Assembly (NCBI GenBank): GCA_020854145.1
Contig: JADZFZ010001118.1
Coordinates: 14,067-78,066, forward strand
Length of the DNA: 64,000 nucleotides
Direction of reading: 5' to 3'
Origin: Deltaproteobacteria bacterium
Lineage (GTDB): Bacteria; Myxococcota_A; Polyangia; Polyangiales; JADZFZ01
Under the pieces are notes generated by a model. The model searched no databases. It was given only the letters and a program-made list of their open reading frames with translations, and was not told the DNA's origin. The position numbers were made by a program, and so were the translations under genes. Positions 47,242 to 63,999 of the stretch are shown piece after piece (within the stretch, counting starts at the first letter, position 1; every line of letters starts with the position of its first letter).

Positions 47242-47711
47242 CCGCCGACCTCCCGCGGTGGCTCACGGCCGACGAGGTCGCGACGATGTTGCACTACCGG
47301 TCGCGCGCCGGCGTGCACATGGCCGTGAGGCGCGGCGAGCTCGTCGGCTATCGCCGCGGCCGCCGCGTGCTGTTCCTGCTCGAGGACGTCGATCGTATGC
47401 TCCGGGGCCGTCCGGTCGTGCGCCCCAGAGGAGAGGACTCCAATGGGCACCACGACGAAACCGAACCGACGAATCGCACCGGGTCTCTGGCAATTGGATA
47501 CGGAGAGGTGGCTCATTCGCGTCAAGGCGCGGAGCCGCAAGACGGGGAGAATCGGGGAGCGCCTCGAGCAGTTTCGGGGGACGCGAGCGGAGGCGATTGC
47601 CACGCGCGAGCAGTGGCGACTCGAGCTCGTCGGCGACGTCGTCCAGCGCGAGAGGCAGACGCTCGAAGCTGTCGCGAAATCGTGGCTGCAGCTCAAGATC
47701 GCACGCGGTGA
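47238..47711 (+). CDS. xis: Excisionase-like HTH protein; ORF tail overlaps int out of frame
   Basis: Translation WLTADEVATMLHYRSRAGVHMAVRRGELVGYRRGRRVLFLLEDVDRML. No stop until 47711, 269 nt into int. Confidence 0.6.
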   Translation: MTADLPRWLTADEVATMLHYRSRAGVHMAVRRGELVGYRRGRRVLFLLEDVDRMLRGRPVVRPRGEDSNGHHDETEPTNRTGSLAIGYGEVAHSRQGAEPQDGENRGAPRAVSGDASGGDCHARAVATRARRRRRPAREADARSCREIVAAAQDRTR

Positions 47712-48606
47712 TCTCGCGACGAGCACCGCCGACCGATACGCGCGCGCTCTCGACGATCACATCCTGCCCGCCCTCGGTGACGTCTTCCTCGAGGAGCTCA
47801 CGCGTGCGGATGTCGATCGATGGCTCGCCGGCGTCGGCCAGGAGCCGAGCACGTGCAATGGGTACCTGCGAGTACTTCGCTCCGTGCTCGAGGGCGCCGT
47901 CGCCGACGAGCTCGTGCCCGCAAACGTCGCGACGCGCGTCGCACCGCTGAAGGAACGCACGCGCGACGAGCCGAACGCGCTCACGGCCGACGAGCTCCGG
48001 CGCGTGCTCGAGCACTGGCGCGCGACGCGGCCGGAGCAGTATCCGCTCGTGCTCGCGCTCGCGCTCACGGGAGCGCGGTGGGGCGAGATCACGGCGCTGC
48101 GATGGAGCGACATCGACGCCGCGGCCGCGGAAGGCGCGCTGACGATCCGTCGCGCCCACCATCGCGGAGAGGTGAAGGAACCGAAGACGGGCGTGCGGCG
48201 CATCGTGCCCTTCCCTCGCGTGCTCGCGCGCGTCCTCGAGGAGCACCGCAAGCGGTGCCTCCGGGAGCAGCGACCGGGCTTCGAGGACGGTTGGGTGTTC
48301 ACCTCGAGCGAGGGGACGCTCCTCGACAATGGTCGATTGTCGAAGCCCTGGCGCGAGGTCCTCGGCGAGCTCGAGATCGCGAAGCGAGTCACCATGCACG
48401 GGCTCCGACACACGATGACCGACCTGCTGCGGCACGCGCGCGTCGACCAGGTGACCTCGGCCGCTCTCATCGGCCACACCACCGAGCAAATGCGGCGACG
48501 CTACTCCACCGTTCTGCCCGCCGAGGCGCGCGCTGCCGGCGACCAGGTCGTGAGAATGGCCGGGCTCGCGGGTGGGAGAATCGGTGGGAGCCGGCGACGG
48601 AAATGA
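47443..48606 (+). CDS. int: Tyrosine integrase
   Basis: GGAGAGGA RBS. Motifs ALALTGARWGEITALRWSDID, HGLRHTMTDLL and IGHTTEQMRRRY (R..HxxR..Y). Confidence 0.9.
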   Translation: MGTTTKPNRRIAPGLWQLDTERWLIRVKARSRKTGRIGERLEQFRGTRAEAIATREQWRLELVGDVVQRERQTLEAVAKSWLQLKIARGDLATSTADRYARALDDHILPALGDVFLEELTRADVDRWLAGVGQEPSTCNGYLRVLRSVLEGAVADELVPANVATRVAPLKERTRDEPNALTADELRRVLEHWRATRPEQYPLVLALALTGARWGEITALRWSDIDAAAAEGALTIRRAHHRGEVKEPKTGVRRIVPFPRVLARVLEEHRKRCLREQRPGFEDGWVFTSSEGTLLDNGRLSKPWREVLGELEIAKRVTMHGLRHTMTDLLRHARVDQVTSAALIGHTTEQMRRRYSTVLPAEARAAGDQVVRMAGLAGGRIGGSRRRK

Positions 48607-48648: not shown

Positions 48649-48666
48649 CCGGGGCGATCACGCCGG

Positions 48667-48732
48667 AGCGGGAGAAGGGATTTGAACCCTCGACTTCAAC
48701 CTTGGCAAGGTTGAGCCCGTTTCCACTGAGCA
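48667..48732 (-). pseudogene. tRNA-Gly(GCC) remnant lacking the 5' acceptor strand (att-site fragment)
   Basis: Minus strand reads D arm GCTC-AGTGGAAAC-GGGC, anticodon arm CAACC-TTGCCAA-GGTTG, T arm GAGGG-TTCAAAT-CCCTT and 3' acceptor CTCCCGC-T. The 7 nt 5' of the D arm (TGTAGAA) cannot pair. Confidence 0.7.
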
Positions 48733-48751
48733 CTTCTACACATTCTTGAAA

Positions 48752-50068
48752 TCACTTCGCTTCTTGAGCCATGTCGTGCCGGCGCGCCTCGGCGTCTTCG
48801 CCTCGGTGGACACCGGAGTGGACACCTCCGGGGATGAGCCGCAGCGCTTGCTCGCCTGCGGCGCGAGCTTCGTCGGGCCGCACCTTCGAGTACCGCCTCT
48901 GCATCGCGTCGCTCTCGTGCCCGACGATGGACTGTCGGATGAACGAGTCGACTCCCGCCTGCCGCAGCAGGTCGACCATCGTGTGCCGCAGTCCGTGGAA
49001 CGTGACGCGCCGCTCGATGCCCACGGCCTTCAGGACGTCACGCCACTCCTTTGACAGGCTCCCGTTGACGAGCAGCGTGCCTTTCTCCGTCGTGAAGAGG
49101 TAACCCGCCGCGATGCCGGGATGCTCGACGGCAACCATCCACCGCCGGTACTCGCGGAACAGCTCGGAGAGCGCGTGGGGCCATGGAACCGAGCGCCGCC
49201 GCCGCCCCTTGGTGCCCTTGAGCTGACCTCGATAGTGCGCGCGCCGAACCAAGAGCGCCCCCTCTCGCTCCGCCTTGTCGAGATCGGCAGGTTGCAGCGC
49301 GGTGACCTCCCCCCACCGCATACCGGTGACGGCCGCGGCAAGCACTATCAGGAAGCCCTGCACCTTGAGATCACGGCGGTGCCGCCCGTGGAATCGAGGG
49401 TGGAGGTACTCCGGCGCGTCGGGCCACACGAGAGCGCATCGCCGTCGCCACTCCTCGATGATCGCACCCAGCTCCTCGGGCTCGAACGTGTTGTCGCCGT
49501 CGTCGGGGTGCTCGTCCTCGGGGATCGGCTTGACCAGGGCGGCCACGTTGCGGGCGATGAGTTTGTCGCCCACGGCGTCGTTCAGCAGGCTTACCAGCAC
49601 CCGCAGCCAGCCGTTGCACGACGTGGCTTGCCATCGCTCTGCTTCTGCCTTGAACCACGCCACCACGTCGGCCTTCTCGAGCCTGGCTAGGATCATCTGC
49701 CCGAGCGCCGGCCTAATCTGTCCGTCGAGCCCGACCGTGTTCAGGATGTGCTGGTCCAACGCGGTGGTGTAGCGGTCCACCGTGCTCGGCGACCATCTTC
49801 GAAGTGCGAGCCCGGTGCTCATCCACGACCGCGCGAATGACTCCACGGTTTCGCGGCTCTGTACTTTCACCGGCTCGTTTGCCGCCAGTTCGGCCCGCAC
49901 CTTCTCGCGTTCGATCAGCGCCTCCGCCTTCGTTCCGTCGAACTGCTGCCACCGGCTTCCGACGAGGCCGGTCTTCGAGCTGCGCGCCTTCACGCGAAAC
50001 TCGAACTTGTCCTTCTCCAATTGCCAAAGACCCGGCGCTACGCGCCTCTTCTTGCTTGTGCGTGCCAT
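48752..50068 (-). CDS. int: Tyrosine integrase (paralogue of 47443..48606)
   Basis: N-terminus RRVAPGLWQLEKDKFEFRVKARSSKTG versus RRIAPGLWQLDTERWLIRVKARSRKTG in int1. Motifs HGLRHTMVDLL and VGHESDAMQRRY. Confidence 0.9.
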   Translation of the reverse strand: MARTSKKRRVAPGLWQLEKDKFEFRVKARSSKTGLVGSRWQQFDGTKAEALIEREKVRAELAANEPVKVQSRETVESFARSWMSTGLALRRWSPSTVDRYTTALDQHILNTVGLDGQIRPALGQMILARLEKADVVAWFKAEAERWQATSCNGWLRVLVSLLNDAVGDKLIARNVAALVKPIPEDEHPDDGDNTFEPEELGAIIEEWRRRCALVWPDAPEYLHPRFHGRHRRDLKVQGFLIVLAAAVTGMRWGEVTALQPADLDKAEREGALLVRRAHYRGQLKGTKGRRRRSVPWPHALSELFREYRRWMVAVEHPGIAAGYLFTTEKGTLLVNGSLSKEWRDVLKAVGIERRVTFHGLRHTMVDLLRQAGVDSFIRQSIVGHESDAMQRRYSKVRPDEARAAGEQALRLIPGGVHSGVHRGEDAEARRHDMAQEAK

Positions 50069-56225: not shown

Positions 56226-57023
56226 ATGTTGCCGTGCTTCGCTCGAGCGGGACCGCGCCCGTCGGCCGAGACCGATGAAGTGACGGTGGTGCTAGAGCGC
56301 CTGGACCCCCGATCGTCGAGGCGCACGATGGCGTCGGCGATGGATCTCATCGCCCGAACGCTGAGCAATGATCAGTTGCTTACAAGGCACTCACTCGCGT
56401 GGGCGCGGATCAGCTCGCCGGTCGGCAACTACGTTCTACGTAGGCTTGCAGATCAGGGGTACTCCCGAACTACCGTCGCACGCTGCGCATATGCGCTGCG
56501 TTCCATGCGACGGCTGTACCCCGATCTACCGCCGCTCGAGTTGGAGCCGCTTCCCGTCACGCAGCCGGCAAGCCGTGTCGTTCAGCCCGTCGGCTACGCT
56601 ACGCTTGGCCGGCTGCGTGACGGCTGCGACGACGGGACCCCTCTGGGGTGCCGGGATGGTCTGGTGGTCGAGTTGCTGCGCGAGAAACTGAGCGCAGGCC
56701 AGATCGTCCGCCTCCGACTCGGCGATTGGGAGGACCGGAAACTCGTTGTCCGGCTGCCGAAGTCAGTGCGTCGCATTCGGCTCGCGGACCCGACGATCGA
56801 CGCGATGGAGGCGTGGGTCGCGCACCGCGGCCCGGAGGACGGTCCGCTGATCGCGCCGGTCCGTCGCCACACCGGCGCGCCGGTGCTTCGCGCCCTCCGA
56901 CCGGAGGCGGTCGGCGAGATCCTTCGACGTCGCGCACGCCTCGCCGGGCTCGCGCGGGTGCCCAGGGTGGTAGACGTCCGCGGTCCAGCTCTTCGAGCCG
57001 GTTGCCACGATGGGCAAGGCTAG
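56226..57023 (+). CDS. Tyrosine-recombinase-like protein lacking the C-terminal HxxR/Tyr region
   Basis: SAM-like N-domain (YSRTTVARCAYALRSMRRL) and the first half of the catalytic domain (LSAGQIVRLRLGDWED...VRLPKSVRRIRL). Ends before any HxxR...Y. Confidence 0.6.
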   Translation: MLPCFARAGPRPSAETDEVTVVLERLDPRSSRRTMASAMDLIARTLSNDQLLTRHSLAWARISSPVGNYVLRRLADQGYSRTTVARCAYALRSMRRLYPDLPPLELEPLPVTQPASRVVQPVGYATLGRLRDGCDDGTPLGCRDGLVVELLREKLSAGQIVRLRLGDWEDRKLVVRLPKSVRRIRLADPTIDAMEAWVAHRGPEDGPLIAPVRRHTGAPVLRALRPEAVGEILRRRARLAGLARVPRVVDVRGPALRAGCHDGQG

Positions 57024-58904: not shown

Positions 58905-59864
58905 TCACTTCTTCTCGTATTCGTCGACCAAGAGACGGGCGGCCGCATCTCCGACTTCGCGGGCGGCATCGTCGTAAAGTTCGGTCGACCGACTGCTCTT
59001 GTGGCGTCCGAAGTGCTGCGCCGTTCGGAGGTTCCCAGTGGCGTTGAGCACTGCCGTAATCGCGGAGTGGCGAAACGAATGCGGGTGCACGACGACGCCG
59101 ACGCGCGCGCCAGCCTCGCGAATGATCTGGAAGATCGCGCTGCCAGTCAGCCGCTTGCCTTTGCTGGCGGAATGAACGCCGCAGAACACCGGTCCGGGCG
59201 CGTCACCGCGGATCCGAAGCCACGCGACGAGCGCCGCCTCGGTCGCGGCAGGCAAGGACCAAGTCTCAAACTCGCCCTCTCGCTGACCTTTGAGGCGCAT
59301 GGACACTTCGTGTTTCGCGAGGTTGACGCGCTCCCGGTCGAGGGACATCACGGAACCCCGTCGGACGCCGAGATCGCTGAGCAGCCTGAGAATCGCGAAA
59401 TTGCGCACGTCCCGCGGCGCGCCGGCAGCCGCTGCTTCTCGAGCCTTGTTGAGCATGTCACGCACGACGCCGAACGCCGGTCCCTTCGTGTTGTAACGGA
59501 CGCGAGTCCCGGGGACTTGCGCCACGTCGAGATGCCAGTCCACGACGCCCAATTCCCTTCCCACGCCGACGACCGAACGGATTGACGCCAATCGCCGATT
59601 GACCGTCGGGGGACTCAACCCGCGCGCGATCATCGCGTCTCGGTAGTCGCCCACGGCGGCGTTGGCGTCGCCACGCGCGAGCGACAAGAGTCGCATGACG
59701 GCTCGTGTCGAATCTCGCTCCCCCATGAAGGCGGCGAAGTGCTGAAGGTCTTTCCGGTAGGCGCTAATCGTCTCGCGGCTCTTCTCAGTCTCGAGGCGCG
59801 CCATGAGTTGCCCCAGCCGCGACTGGGAGTCCGGCGGCTCCCACCGACTGATTGAATCCGCCAT
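58905..59864 (-). CDS. Tyrosine recombinase, XerC/D-like, apparently intact
   Basis: SAM-like N-domain (ETISAYRKDLQHFAAFM). Motifs ILRLLSDLGVRRGSVMSLDRE, HPHSFRHSAIT and GRHKSSRSTELY. Confidence 0.85.
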   Translation of the reverse strand: MADSISRWEPPDSQSRLGQLMARLETEKSRETISAYRKDLQHFAAFMGERDSTRAVMRLLSLARGDANAAVGDYRDAMIARGLSPPTVNRRLASIRSVVGVGRELGVVDWHLDVAQVPGTRVRYNTKGPAFGVVRDMLNKAREAAAAGAPRDVRNFAILRLLSDLGVRRGSVMSLDRERVNLAKHEVSMRLKGQREGEFETWSLPAATEAALVAWLRIRGDAPGPVFCGVHSASKGKRLTGSAIFQIIREAGARVGVVVHPHSFRHSAITAVLNATGNLRTAQHFGRHKSSRSTELYDDAAREVGDAAARLLVDEYEKK

Positions 59865-60312: not shown

Positions 60313-61122
60313 TCAGATGTCGTCTTCGTCACCGCGATCGTCGTCGTCCCTGCCACCCGCGTCGCCGATATCGTCCACATGGCGACGCGGGTACTCGTCA
60401 CGCGGACGAGGGGGCCACTCGTAGACGCCGACTCGGAGCCTGCCAGAAAGGTAGCTGGTGAGCGTGTGCTCGGCGTCTTTGAGCCGTACCTCCCTCGACT
60501 GTCGCGGCTTCGCGTCGATGTCTGCGCGATCTTCTACGATGGCACCATCCGTCGGATGGGGGCACGGCCTGTGAAAGGTGTAGCCGCCGCCCGAAAGCAA
60601 CTCGGCGTAGTTTCCATCGAGGAAGCGATGATATCCGGCATGCTGGAGCACACCATCAGTGACGAGGTGATGTAGCGCCTGGGCCTTCAAGGCGTAGAGC
60701 GACTCCTTCCTTCGCTTCGACGATGACGCGAACTGATGCGCACGCTTGTTGTACTGCCCTCGCGCGGCGTTGCGCCAGCGCTTCGCGGAACGGTTCGCGG
60801 CCCAGAGGGCAGCCAGCAAGTCGACGGTCTTGGCGGGGCTGTGCTTCCGCTGAGCCTTGGGGAGCACCTGATCGTCGCGGTAGACGTGCCACGACCTCGT
60901 CTTGCCGCCGGCCGCGCCGCCAACGTGACCGGTCAGGGTGGCGTGAGGCTCGGCGTCATCGCGAACCCGGCAGCCCTTCTCGCCCCACGCAGTGGCGGAG
61001 AGCGCGGCCTTCGGGTCTCGCGCAAGCAGCTGTCCTTTCAGGGTGATCTGCTCCCCTCCGTACTCGCCTTTGCGTAGCTCCCGAAACCCAGCGCTCTTGG
61101 CAGCTTTGATGGTGCGAAACAT
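60313..61122 (-). CDS. Hypothetical protein (269 aa) with acidic C-terminal tail; distant paralogue of 63070..63999
   Basis: Shares NR-x-AK...(E/S)(I/L)Y-x-LK...L-x-x-L and F-x-(W/F)-H-(Q/R)-P motifs with 63070..63999. Tail DDIGDAGGRDDDDRGDEDDI. Confidence 0.6.
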   Translation of the reverse strand: MFRTIKAAKSAGFRELRKGEYGGEQITLKGQLLARDPKAALSATAWGEKGCRVRDDAEPHATLTGHVGGAAGGKTRSWHVYRDDQVLPKAQRKHSPAKTVDLLAALWAANRSAKRWRNAARGQYNKRAHQFASSSKRRKESLYALKAQALHHLVTDGVLQHAGYHRFLDGNYAELLSGGGYTFHRPCPHPTDGAIVEDRADIDAKPRQSREVRLKDAEHTLTSYLSGRLRVGVYEWPPRPRDEYPRRHVDDIGDAGGRDDDDRGDEDDI

Positions 61123-61673
61123 GAGTCCTCCGCGGTTACGAGCCTACCTCTGCCGTCGTCACGAAGCATCCGGCTTTGACCTGAACCACGTTCGCCGTTG
61201 TATGGCCGGTGTCTCGGTGTCGAGTGCCCGAAACCGCGCTGCCACGATCGAGGGCATTCGGGGGTAGAGAATCCAACCAGCAGGCCAAAGGCGCCGTCGC
61301 CGTCGGGTGCCAGTGCGGACCGAACCGTCGGATCAACGTGACGTGCTCCGTCCGTAGCGACGCTTCGGTGCCGGTCGTCGCCCGCGTCTCCGCGAGGGCG
61401 GAGAGCGGCACGCTCGGCGTCAACAGTCGTGGTTCCGGCAGCGTCTGGGTGGGGCCCCGGTCGAGCACGCTCGTCTCCGTGAGCACGAGGCTGGGTTGGC
61501 TGCTGCCGGTCGCCAACTGCGCGAGCGCCACGAACTGCCGCTGCTCACTCGCGGGAGCTGATGTCGCGGAGTGACGGCCGCAGCGCCAGCTCCTGTCCGT
61601 TGGGGTCGGGCTCGCTCGAGGCTGCTGGTGACGTTCGGCTTTGCCATCGCGCTCGGCGAGCACCGGCTGTAGC

Positions 61674-62597
61674 TCATTCAGGCGCGACGGTTGATGCAGC
61701 ACCGGTTCGCCGCCGAACGACTCTTGCGGGAGCGCATCGCGCGTGAATGAGCTTCCAACCATTGCGCGCGCCACTCGCTTCTTCGACAATCGCCCCGAGT
61801 TGATTCAGATCGACGTGGTGTTCGGAGATGCCGGGGTCTCTGCGATACTCGGCCCCAAGGGCGAGGCGTTCCTTCGGCGACCTCGCCCGCTCTACAATTC
61901 GCGAGAACGCCTCGCACGAATAGGCGAATAGTTCTCGTTTTCGGTACTCGATATCGAGCAGCCACTGGCGACGTCGCGTCTCCTTGAGCCCGACCGTGCC
62001 GCGCTTGCAGTTGTGGAAGATGTGGGCGACCTCGTGAACGAGGAAATCAGCGAAGGGATCGTCGTCCTCGAAGTACTCGGCCGACACGTAGCAGGTCGTC
62101 TCCGGATCGTCGTCCTCGAAGTACTCGGCCGACACGTAGCAGGTCGTCTCCTCGGAGAGACCGACAAGTCGTGGCGCGTCGTCGCCAAGCACGTCGGCGC
62201 CAATGCTGACCAGGAAGAGATTCGCGAGGACCCAGCTCGAATGAAGCCAATGGGAATCTCGCAAGAGCCGACCGATGTTCTCCCTGGTGAGGAAGACGAC
62301 CGACTTCTCCAACACGGCCAGCACGGGGTCTTGCTCGGCCCGCGGGAATAGCCCGCGAACCATGGGGGCGACCTTCCGTCGTGTGAGCGCGACGGTGTCG
62401 ATGCTGGGTATCGTGCGCAACCGCGGTGCCGCATCAGCGCGACGTTCCACCTCGGCCGCCAGCGCGTCGGTGAGATCGTCGTGGGCGCGCTTCGAGCCTT
62501 CGAAGAAGCCTCCCGGCCACGCAGCGTGATGCGTCTCGTACTTGCCGGTGCGGATGTACCGCTCGATCTCGTCGGCGATCGTCGGCCGCTGCGTCAT
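61674..62597 (-). CDS. HEXXH-motif protein (putative zinc metallopeptidase), contains a 16-aa perfect tandem duplication
   Basis: Motif FLVHEVAHIFHN. ATG 62597 (MTQRPTIADEIERY) is preferred over the track start 62702, which overlaps the upstream gene. Confidence 0.65.
   Translation of the reverse strand: MTQRPTIADEIERYIRTGKYETHHAAWPGGFFEGSKRAHDDLTDALAAEVERRADAAPRLRTIPSIDTVALTRRKVAPMVRGLFPRAEQDPVLAVLEKSVVFLTRENIGRLLRDSHWLHSSWVLANLFLVSIGADVLGDDAPRLVGLSEETTCYVSAEYFEDDDPETTCYVSAEYFEDDDPFADFLVHEVAHIFHNCKRGTVGLKETRRRQWLLDIEYRKRELFAYSCEAFSRIVERARSPKERLALGAEYRRDPGISEHHVDLNQLGAIVEEASGARNGWKLIHARCAPARVVRRRTGAASTVAPE
62056..62151. repeat. Perfect 48-bp tandem duplication (2 copies)
   Basis: 62056..62103 equals 62104..62151. 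Encodes ETTCYVSAEYFEDDDP twice, just N-terminal of the HEXXH motif. Confidence 0.95.
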
Positions 62598-62677
62598 GGT
62601 CGGCGATGGTACACGCGGCGTGACCCCCCTGCGTAAGCCCCCGTGCGAGACGCTCGGCTCGGCATCACGAAGCCCGC

Positions 62678-63073
62678 TCACCGGCGTCGTCTGGGTCCCC
62701 ATTTGTCACCGTACTGGGGAGGATCAGGAATCCGCTGAACAGGCTCGCTCGCTCGTTCCGCGATGAAAGTGCTGCCGTCGCCATTCGTGATCTTGATGCG
62801 ACCGCGGAGCCTGCCGTCCTTGCCGAGCCTGACGCTGCCCGTGCCGGTCATCTCGTCGTACTCCCAGGCGCCCTCCCAGGTGAACGACGCCCCAGTCTTC
62901 GTGGGTGTCACGTTCACGTACGCGAGCAAGCAATGCATCCGAAGTCGGTCCGCGCCGCCAGTGATGGAGATCATCGCCGGGCCCAGGTCGTCGAGCCCGT
63001 CGTTCACCCAGGTTGAGGTGTCCGTGATTCGCCACCAGCCGCACAGACCCGGATCCAAGCCCTTGCTCGTCAT
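62678..63073 (-). CDS. Small beta-rich hypothetical protein (131 aa)
   Basis: ATGA overlap with the upstream stop. Translation CGWWRITDTSTWVNDG...ASFTWEGAWEYDEMTGTGSVRLGKDGRLRGRIKITNGDGSTFIAER. Confidence 0.55.
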   Translation of the reverse strand: MTSKGLDPGLCGWWRITDTSTWVNDGLDDLGPAMISITGGADRLRMHCLLAYVNVTPTKTGASFTWEGAWEYDEMTGTGSVRLGKDGRLRGRIKITNGDGSTFIAERASEPVQRIPDPPQYGDKWGPRRRR

Positions 63074-63999
63074 GACGGGGGATTGCTGCGCGCCCGACGC
63101 GATTCACCGATGACCCAACCGACGAGGTCCTTCGCCTCCGCGAACCTCCTCCTCGGCATCGGAGTGGGCTTCCCGCCTGGTTCGGGCGTCCACTCCGAAG
63201 ACTCGGTCGGCTGGGGATACTCCCAGCCGACCTCGATCGAGGGCTGGTGCCACGCGAACCGCCGACCATCCACCACGAACCTGAACGCCACGTAGCGCAC
63301 GATTCGAGGTGGAAGGTACCAACCGGTACCTGCGCACCGTCGGCACGACGAATGGCCGGCCGAGCCGTCATCCTCCACCCCGTCGGGATTGCACGCCCGA
63401 CACGACTTGCCGGCCTGATGCTGATCGTGGTGCTTCACCTCCACGACCATCCCTTCCTCGCAGAGGAGGTGGAGCAGACCTGACTTGAGGCTGTAGATCT
63501 CGTCCCGGTGTTCTGGGCGACAACTGGCGTGCTTCGCGTACCGATTCAGCGAGAACATCGCCTCGGCGGCGTCCCGAAGGGCAGTGCGCCAATCGCCGTA
63601 GCGCTCCCGGAACTCTGCTCGACGCTTCTCAGGCTTGAGTGCTCGAGCCTCTTTGGCCCGCCGCGATCGCTCAAGGACCGCGGTTACCTCGGGACCAGCC
63701 ACGAGCGCCGCGATGGGCTCGGGAGGCCAGAGCGGGCATTCGGGACCCGTGAGATGGTTTGGATTCCGATACCAGCTTTCCGGCTTCAGGGCGAGGTCGG
63801 TGGCGAGCTTGCGGAACTGGGACGCTGTCAGGCCCAGCCGTTCGGCCGCTACCGGTGTGGGGAGCAGGAGCTTGCGTCGCTGCCACTGCCGCTCCTCTTC
63901 CGCTTTCTGCGATTCTCGCTCGGCTGCCTTCTGCTCGGCCTTCTGCTTCTCACGTCGGACCTTCTGCTTCTCACGTTCCGCGAGGCTCGCCCGTGCCAT
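63070..63999 (-). CDS. Hypothetical protein (309 aa): Lys/Glu coil, HTH-like segment, CxxC..CxxC insert
   Basis: ATG at 63999; could start beyond the window edge. Motifs AAERLGLTASQFRKLA, SLNRYAKH...EIYSLKSGLLHLL and CRACNPDG...CRRCAGTGWY. Confidence 0.6.
   Translation of the reverse strand: MARASLAEREKQKVRREKQKAEQKAAERESQKAEEERQWQRRKLLLPTPVAAERLGLTASQFRKLATDLALKPESWYRNPNHLTGPECPLWPPEPIAALVAGPEVTAVLERSRRAKEARALKPEKRRAEFRERYGDWRTALRDAAEAMFSLNRYAKHASCRPEHRDEIYSLKSGLLHLLCEEGMVVEVKHHDQHQAGKSCRACNPDGVEDDGSAGHSSCRRCAGTGWYLPPRIVRYVAFRFVVDGRRFAWHQPSIEVGWEYPQPTESSEWTPEPGGKPTPMPRRRFAEAKDLVGWVIGESRRARSNPPS

Follow-up and report, generated by a model that had tools for sequence, protein, structure and literature searches.

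Do four neighbouring genes on the minus strand of an integrated element in a Myxococcota metagenome-assembled genome form one system, or do they merely stand together? The genes, designated here A to D, are located at the end of a 64,000-nucleotide stretch of contig JADZFZ010001118.1 (assembly GCA_020854145.1, positions 14,067 to 78,066), referred to below as the window. The original prediction, made from the letters of the sequence, saw in them a DNA-binding zinc-ribbon protein, a small partner and a putative protease, with a second zinc-ribbon-free relative of the first, and considered a defence, toxin–antitoxin (TA) or interference module carried as satellite cargo. All four open reading frames (ORFs) are laid out on the minus strand as it described:

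63070-63999, minus strand: gene A, ORF of 309 amino acids (aa)
62678-63073, minus strand: gene B, ORF of 131 aa
61674-62702, minus strand: ORF of gene C, with the conserved start at 62597 (61674..62597), 307 aa
60313-61122, minus strand: gene D, ORF of 269 aa

On balance, A–D probably represent an accreted mosaic made of two Kre/YkyB-like nucleic-acid-binding regulators, an insertion sequence (IS)-associated small protein and a solitary metal-dependent hydrolase that is probably crippled in this copy. Four independently mobile genes would thus have been gathered by accretion in the integrated element and would not constitute one system. The YkyB/Kre/KrrA superfamily would have contributed two divergent members, A and D. 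D would have kept the architecture of the YkyB protein of phage c-st, and A would have acquired a DnaJ-type zinc ribbon, an excisionase-type winged helix-turn-helix (HTH) and a coil. Both may bind nucleic acids and regulate the expression of element or host genes, in the manner of their homologues in the early or replication regions of temperate phages. B would be a small-domain protein of the mobile-element gene pool, present as orf2 of IS5-family elements in Alphaproteobacteria, and C a stand-alone, strongly constrained, predicted metal-dependent hydrolase that integrative elements and megaplasmids carry as a single cargo gene.

Gene order outside the window

A family of homologues was found for each of the four ORFs. 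Logan contig L005, a relative with ~92.5% identity, carries B-C-D in the same order as the window. Against it, the ratios of non-synonymous to synonymous substitution rates (dN/dS) of B, C and D were 0.32, 0.22 and 0.37, respectively, which indicates purifying selection on all three. The full gene order was found again in this relative only. None of the 48 loci with B and 88 loci with C contained a homologue of A or D; correspondingly, the homologues of A (L003, L004, L054 and L055) and of D (L056 and L057) have neither B, C nor the other paralogue nearby. With regard to a type II TA or any other conserved operon, the census revealed no gene pair or gene order conserved across divergent genomes. 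The genes are therefore essentially never syntenic elsewhere, an outcome named in the original prediction as one that would count against it, and with the order limited to L005 and no conserved partners, the proposal of a single defence, TA or interference module is not supported. An arrangement of ‘HTH + small partner + protease’ may look plausible and still have come about by chance.

Scans of all four proteins against Pfam, NCBIfam, PADLOC and PHROGs gave nothing above threshold, and no PADLOC-DB 2.0 family was matched by any of them at E values up to 1, in agreement with the earlier remark that no named defence system was recognisable. At the DNA level, a search of the phage collection had no match to the locus, and in the plasmid collection only 100-120 bp around the HExxH codons of C were matched.

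The space between C and D (61123-61673), described earlier as an unclear stretch of ~540 bp, is the deleted remnant of an opposite-strand gene.

61209-61574, plus strand: remnant ORF of the opposite-strand gene in the C-D gap

At the window junction 61292/61293, L005 contains an additional 654 bp, and its C-D space (1462-2400) displays a strong opposite-strand third-position G+C periodicity (GC3 periodicity of 0.86-0.92). With an opposite-strand gene once placed between C and D, and A and D never joining B and C, A–D are not one operon. The remnant ORF had no Pfam match and the gap no Rfam match, and scans of the gap for promoters and terminators gave nothing. In L005 the additional bp, which may contain a frameshift, encode a putative transmembrane helix, a linker rich in Ala, Arg and Glu and a C-terminal domain that contains Cys.

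The outer proteins and the YkyB/Kre domain

Judged by profile comparison, A and D are distant paralogues whose common domain is YkyB/Kre-like (PF14177). Pairwise BLASTP between the two was marginal (E 3e-4 over 50 aa), and hhalign of the two families with the zinc ribbon of A kept aligned only the central helix (E 1e-4). Once the ribbon columns were removed, the same comparison reached 87% probability, with an E value of 4.2e-6 over 115 columns, and brought into register the colinear motifs NRxAK, LYxLK, (F/W)HxP and a C-terminal KP..(F/L)xxA helix. The weakness of the full-length alignment is due to the ribbon (residues 196-226), which in the AlphaFold2 (AF2) model is inserted between β-strands of the shared domain. 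The distant paralogy suspected in the original prediction is thus borne out; the motif pair on which it was based, regarded there as unusual and left unplaced, is shared beyond chance, but belongs to a domain of a known family.

A tblastn search with D led to the ‘YkyB family protein’ of Clostridium botulinum phage c-st (E 6e-6), which itself passes PF14177 with 39.1 bits and aligns with the D family by hhalign at 95% probability (E 2.1e-8, 170 columns), the N-terminal extension of D included. D scored 19.6 bits against PF14177 (E 1.4e-3; gathering cut-off of 28.4 bits). Sub-threshold matches were likewise obtained for three further D-family proteins (P0139, P0135 and P0140) and one A-family protein (P0129), the best scores being 27.3 bits for P0139, which has a precomputed PF14177.12 match, and 15.9 bits (E 0.019) for P0129. 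A PDB sequence-profile search with D returned noise only.

A conserved Asn and a conserved His are a feature of the PF14177 family. N152 (in NRxAK) and H251 (in (F/W)HxP) are invariant or nearly so in the A family (12 clusters); in the D family (10 clusters) H184 is invariant and N109 is replaced by Thr in two members. D consists of an N-terminal extension, a Kre-like domain (~60448-60840) and the acidic tail noted earlier (60316-60375).

YkyB is Kre, which lowers the stability of comK mRNA in Bacillus subtilis (PMC4482431), and KrrA, the Kre homologue of B. anthracis, has been described as binding RNA and modulating the stability of mRNAs (PMC8938561). The same domain with colinear motifs is present in D and, more distantly, in A, and by homology RNA binding and control of mRNA stability might be expected of both. 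They differ from Kre and KrrA in their host, a mobile element of Myxococcota and not a ComK-bearing Bacillus, and in their additions: an N-terminal extension and acidic tail in D; in A, a zinc ribbon within the β-sheet, a coil and a putative winged helix of the HTH_17 type.

The AF2 model of A (predicted local distance difference test score, pLDDT, 88.5) and the sequence bear out the accessory parts proposed earlier, i.e., a K/E-rich coil, a winged HTH and a CxxC..CxxC ribbon set into the β-sheet. From the N-terminus, A comprises the coil, the winged HTH, long helices and the Kre/YkyB-like domain with its inserted DnaJ-type ribbon:

63703-63858, minus strand: residues 48-99, probable excisionase/MerR-type winged HTH (HTH_17-like; AF2, Foldseek)
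63073-63591, minus strand: residues 137-309, Kre/YkyB-like domain (hhalign against the D family)
63532-63549, minus strand: LNRYAK motif of this domain
63463-63501, minus strand: EIYSLK..HLL motif
63241-63255, minus strand: AWHQP motif
63130-63144, minus strand: FAEAK motif
63322-63414, minus strand: residues 196-226, CxxC..CxxC zinc ribbon between β-strands of the Kre-like domain
63391-63402, minus strand: CRAC, ribbon knuckle
63334-63345, minus strand: CRRC, ribbon knuckle

The winged HTH is modelled with helices at residues 48-55 and 59-68 and strands at 75-77 and 88-91; its Foldseek neighbours were the RacA–DNA and MerR DNA-binding domains (TMt 0.56, probability 0.96). The HTH_17 model of Pfam had no match to A of the window and a sub-threshold one to family member P0129 (19.7 bits against a cut-off of 27, E 1.1e-3); A-family members also match DUF6397 below threshold. 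The coil is unique to A of the window and absent from the other 11 family members. A 21-bp tandem repeat in two copies (63935-63976) at the 5′ end of the gene encodes part of this Lys/Glu-rich segment.

The ribbon cysteines C200, C203, C219 and C222 are nearly invariant in the family, and one member (P0125) lacks the ribbon altogether. The two CxxCxGxG-like knuckles resemble those of the DnaJ CXXCXGXG and lambda Q zinc fingers (TIGR02642 / PF27659 CHP02642), and two A-family members have a weak precomputed PF27659 match; unlike in those proteins, the similarity of A is limited to the ribbon and its flanks. The DnaJ_CXXCXGXG matches to A stayed below threshold, and in a PDB sequence-profile search the lambda Q zinc finger was matched with an E value of 2e-4. 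It is the DnaJ-type ribbon that accounts for the weak lambda Q and TIGR02642-type signals. We rejected A as a Q-type antiterminator, the match being confined to the ribbon and no other Q features being seen. Likewise rejected was Nop7/pescadillo of pre-60S ribosomes, to which the model of A had a Foldseek E value of 1e-5, but with a TM-score of 0.26 and a root-mean-square deviation of 17 Å; this match, accompanied by an E value of 0.1 to pescadillo in the PDB sequence-profile search, is probably an artefact of the long helices in the model.

Homologues of A occur in viral contigs L054 and L055 beside genes for a Prim-Pol/D5_N primase-helicase, TerL, portal protein and integrase, and in L003 and L004 they stand in unrelated neighbourhoods. 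Homologues of D were found in viral contigs L056 and L057, which also have a portal or an HTH-M78 gene. The D-like protein of L056 (139-708) has a CCHC zinc knuckle at its C-terminal end (zf-CCHC, E 3.6e-4), another nucleic-acid-binding addition.

Diverged YkyB/Kre relatives in myxobacterial elements and temperate phages extend this family, in which some proteins join the domain to a zinc ribbon or zinc knuckle or to a probably DNA-binding winged helix; A has a new architecture among YkyB/Kre-like proteins. These findings suggest that mobile elements use the YkyB/Kre-like domain to control gene expression.

Gene C and its family

What is left as most interesting in this locus is the family of C. 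An alignment of 35 homologues places its start at 62597, as the original prediction had it, and not at the upstream ATG of the ORF. Among the candidates scored, the family numbers more than 1,951 clusters, defined at 90% identity, and it was found in at least 573 metagenome loci. Its members come from Myxococcota, Acidobacteriota, Planctomycetota and Burkholderiales, and proteins from Sorangium, Archangium, Terriglobales and others are ~60% identical. As many as 66 of the 291 columns of the alignment are invariant, including H172, E173, H176, H179, C153, C181, C212 and C272. The following features were located in the gene:

62022-62036, minus strand: HEVAH motif
62001-62015, minus strand: HNCKR motif
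62056-62151, within C: perfect 48-bp in-frame tandem duplication, which doubles the 16-aa segment ETTCYVSAEYFEDDDP

In the AF2 model (pLDDT 84, predicted template-modelling score 0.79) a β-hairpin with strands at residues 146-155 is followed by the HExxH helix (169-178). No named peptidase family could be assigned to C: there was no match in Pfam, NCBIfam, PHROGs or PADLOC, the PDB sequence-profile search was empty, the model had no Foldseek neighbour in PDB or BFVD, and neither a curated peptidase model nor a solved zincin fold was matched. The earlier statement to this effect holds, also when extended to hhalign against ImmA/IrrE proteins (see below). From these comparisons, C appears to represent a large, unnamed and uncharacterised enzyme family without a Pfam model.

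Mobile elements carry several kinds of zincins, namely ImmA/IrrE (M78), SprT-like proteins and the C-terminal part of ArdC, and C resembles them in being carried by such elements and in its invariant HExxH helix after a small β-sheet. There was no sequence or Foldseek match from C to any of the three, and it differs in having an additional invariant His (HExxHxxH), four invariant Cys residues and a large N-terminal helical domain, and in being solitary, with no conserved HTH or single-stranded-DNA-binding partner. Metal-dependent hydrolysis is a predicted activity of C.

According to the model, the segment doubled in C of the window is the β-hairpin that carries invariant C153, immediately ahead of the HExxH helix. 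Neither L005 nor any of the 35 aligned homologues has the duplication, which hence is either recent or an assembly artefact. If real, it has probably damaged this copy of C, with a loss of function as the expected result.

Neighbour clustering of 88 loci revealed no conserved partner of C, as no neighbour cluster was present in more than six loci. Homologues were found on 16 plasmids of Burkholderiales and Thauera, including pHG1, and also near Tn7-like TniB/TniQ genes; IMG/VR contained none. Others stand beside an integrase and an HTH_17 gene at the edges of islands with CBASS (cyclic-oligonucleotide-based antiphage signalling system), Bil, type I restriction-modification (RM) and AbiE genes. 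In two Acidobacteria islands (L002 6056-13062 and L058 5685-13868) the C homologue comes directly after the integrase and HTH_17 genes. Behind it the cargo differs: one island has Bil, AbiE and type I RM genes, the other has CBASS with SAVED and E2, and an HTH-Peptidase_M78 gene is present in each. The A–D cluster shares with the defence hotspots of phage satellites and integrative islands an integrase-bearing element and, through its homologues of C, the vicinity of CBASS, Bil, RM and AbiE; it differs from them in that none of A–D had a match to a known defence protein and in that the gene set lacks conservation. Being abundant, exceptionally conserved, unnamed and recurrent at the edges of defence islands, the family is a reasonable candidate for functional screening.

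With this distribution in view, C might found an unrecognised family of single-gene mobile metalloenzymes that act as stand-alone defence or counter-defence effectors on a conserved cellular or invader target, B being an occasional modulator. We regard this reading as rather unlikely.

Gene B and its relation to C

B is a small protein with a GxWRI...F.A.R domain and an Arg-rich C-terminus; both GxWRI and F.A.R are conserved in the alignment of its family, which counts 372 representative clusters. It had no match in Pfam, PADLOC, PHROGs or NCBIfam, and its PDB profile gave insignificant matches to acylphosphatase and fatty-acid-binding protein (FABP). The match to the hidden Markov model of FABP4 covers the whole domain, but at an insignificant E value of 1.1; together with the GxW...R pattern it hints at a possible calycin (lipocalin/FABP)-like barrel, which we take as a lead only.

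B also resembles a gene of insertion sequences. On alphaproteobacterial plasmids, B-like ORFs occur in 74 records, some in multiple copies. The start of such an ORF overlaps the stop codon of an IS5-family transposase (DUF772 + DDE_Tnp_1), and both lie inside 16-bp terminal inverted repeats, which identifies the B-like ORF as orf2 of the IS:

L150 2792-4338, ~1.55 kb: IS5-family IS with B-like orf2; also present in L148 and L151, degraded in L147 and L149

In rhizobial plasmids orf2 has the same domain as B, with 35-44% identity (E 1e-9 to 3e-13) over 75-95% of B, and its start overlaps the stop of the gene upstream, like that of B with A in the window. They differ in context: neither the window nor any of the 48 B loci of delta-, Acidobacteria- and Planctomycetota-type has a transposase adjacent to B, so that the IS position does not apply to B of the window. 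Neighbours vary among these 48 genome loci, and none is conserved.

By analogy with protease–inhibitor or toxin–immunity pairs, B and C could form a two-gene unit in which B inhibits, chaperones or targets the HExxH hydrolase, A and D being unrelated neighbours. B is located directly upstream of C, with gaps of 20-80 nucleotides, in the window, in L005 and in the diverged Myxococcota genomes L008 and L028, although C is only ~54% identical there. In three further loci the two genes are at most 0.5 kb apart, B being transcribed divergently from C in L116, and in L118 and L133 lying downstream of it at a distance of ~0.4-0.5 kb. Both families are, moreover, unusually conserved (60-75% identity across phyla). 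Set against this, C is present in only two of the 48 genome loci with B, and B in only three of the 80 metagenome loci with C; orientation and order vary between cases, and in Alphaproteobacteria B is found as orf2 of an IS, without C. We also compared the genes upstream of C in two Burkholderiales plasmids (155 aa), and rejected them as equivalents of B, being related neither to B nor to each other. A functional B–C pair thus seems unlikely to us.

For the mosaic of independently acquired genes, the pairing of B and C is nevertheless one of several observations that weigh against it. Placement of the two within 0.5 kb, met in five independent cases among ~136 loci and in three arrangements, is more frequent than random genomic placement predicts, which is a frequency that two members of one cargo pool could produce. 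The ATGA overlap of the stop of A and the start of B, present in the sequence as noted earlier together with the HExxH and the other quoted motifs, all at the expected residues, suggests that A and B are co-translated here. The families of A and D are mostly found on short contigs, and their neighbourhoods are thinly sampled. Finally, neither protein of the window reaches the gathering score of PF14177, A being without any match to this model, and hhalign of the A family against the YkyB protein of phage c-st gave 29% probability only.

A regulatory protease or a defence system?

Integrative elements commonly pair an HExxH protease with an HTH regulator, as in ImmR/ImmA of ICEBs1. C could accordingly be conceived as a protease that regulates the element as an ImmA/IrrE-like anti-repressor, with the HTH protein A as its substrate or partner, given that A has a winged HTH and that C adjoins integrase and HTH_17 genes in Acidobacteria elements. 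We consider this very doubtful: hhalign of C against three ImmA/IrrE (Peptidase_M78) proteins aligned the HExxH motif only (3% probability, 21 columns), the same islands already hold separate HTH-M78 genes, an HTH_17 neighbour is present in only six of the 88 C loci and a homologue of A in none, and so high an identity across phyla (60%) is not typical of a protease adapted to the repressor of one particular element. A new anti-phage defence, TA or interference system made up of all four genes is highly improbable. In its favour are their position in an integrated element that also encodes an integrase and a DUF927 protein, the presence of C homologues in defence islands and the lack of a known housekeeping role for any of the four genes. 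Against it, PADLOC gave no match, the set is conserved no further than the ~92.5% identical relative, an opposite-strand gene formerly stood between C and D, and C bears a probably disruptive duplication.

Setting of the element

The mosaic of A–D, which we continue to favour, is located in a part of the window with further genes for site-specific recombination; the G+C content of the window is 65-73%. To the right of a tRNA-Gly gene follow, in this order, a gene for a 749-aa DUF927 (helicase-type) protein, a second tyrosine recombinase and the genes A–D. The features are:

58905-59864, minus strand: XerC/D-like tyrosine recombinase downstream of D (Phage_integrase E 2.6e-17; TIGR02224 E 7.7e-26)
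56226-57023, plus strand: 265-aa ORF near this recombinase, with a weak integrase SAM-like N-terminal match only (E 0.13)
48665-48739, minus strand: tRNA-Gly gene
47443-48606, plus strand, and 48752-50068, minus strand: paralogous tyrosine integrases flanking the tRNA-Gly gene, 43% identical

No attachment-site repeat of the tRNA-Gly gene was found within the window and the element extends past the end of it, which leaves the element boundaries undefined and the designation as satellite cargo unconfirmed. The presence of two integrases around one tRNA-Gly gene points to two elements here, or else to an insertion in tandem or nested form.

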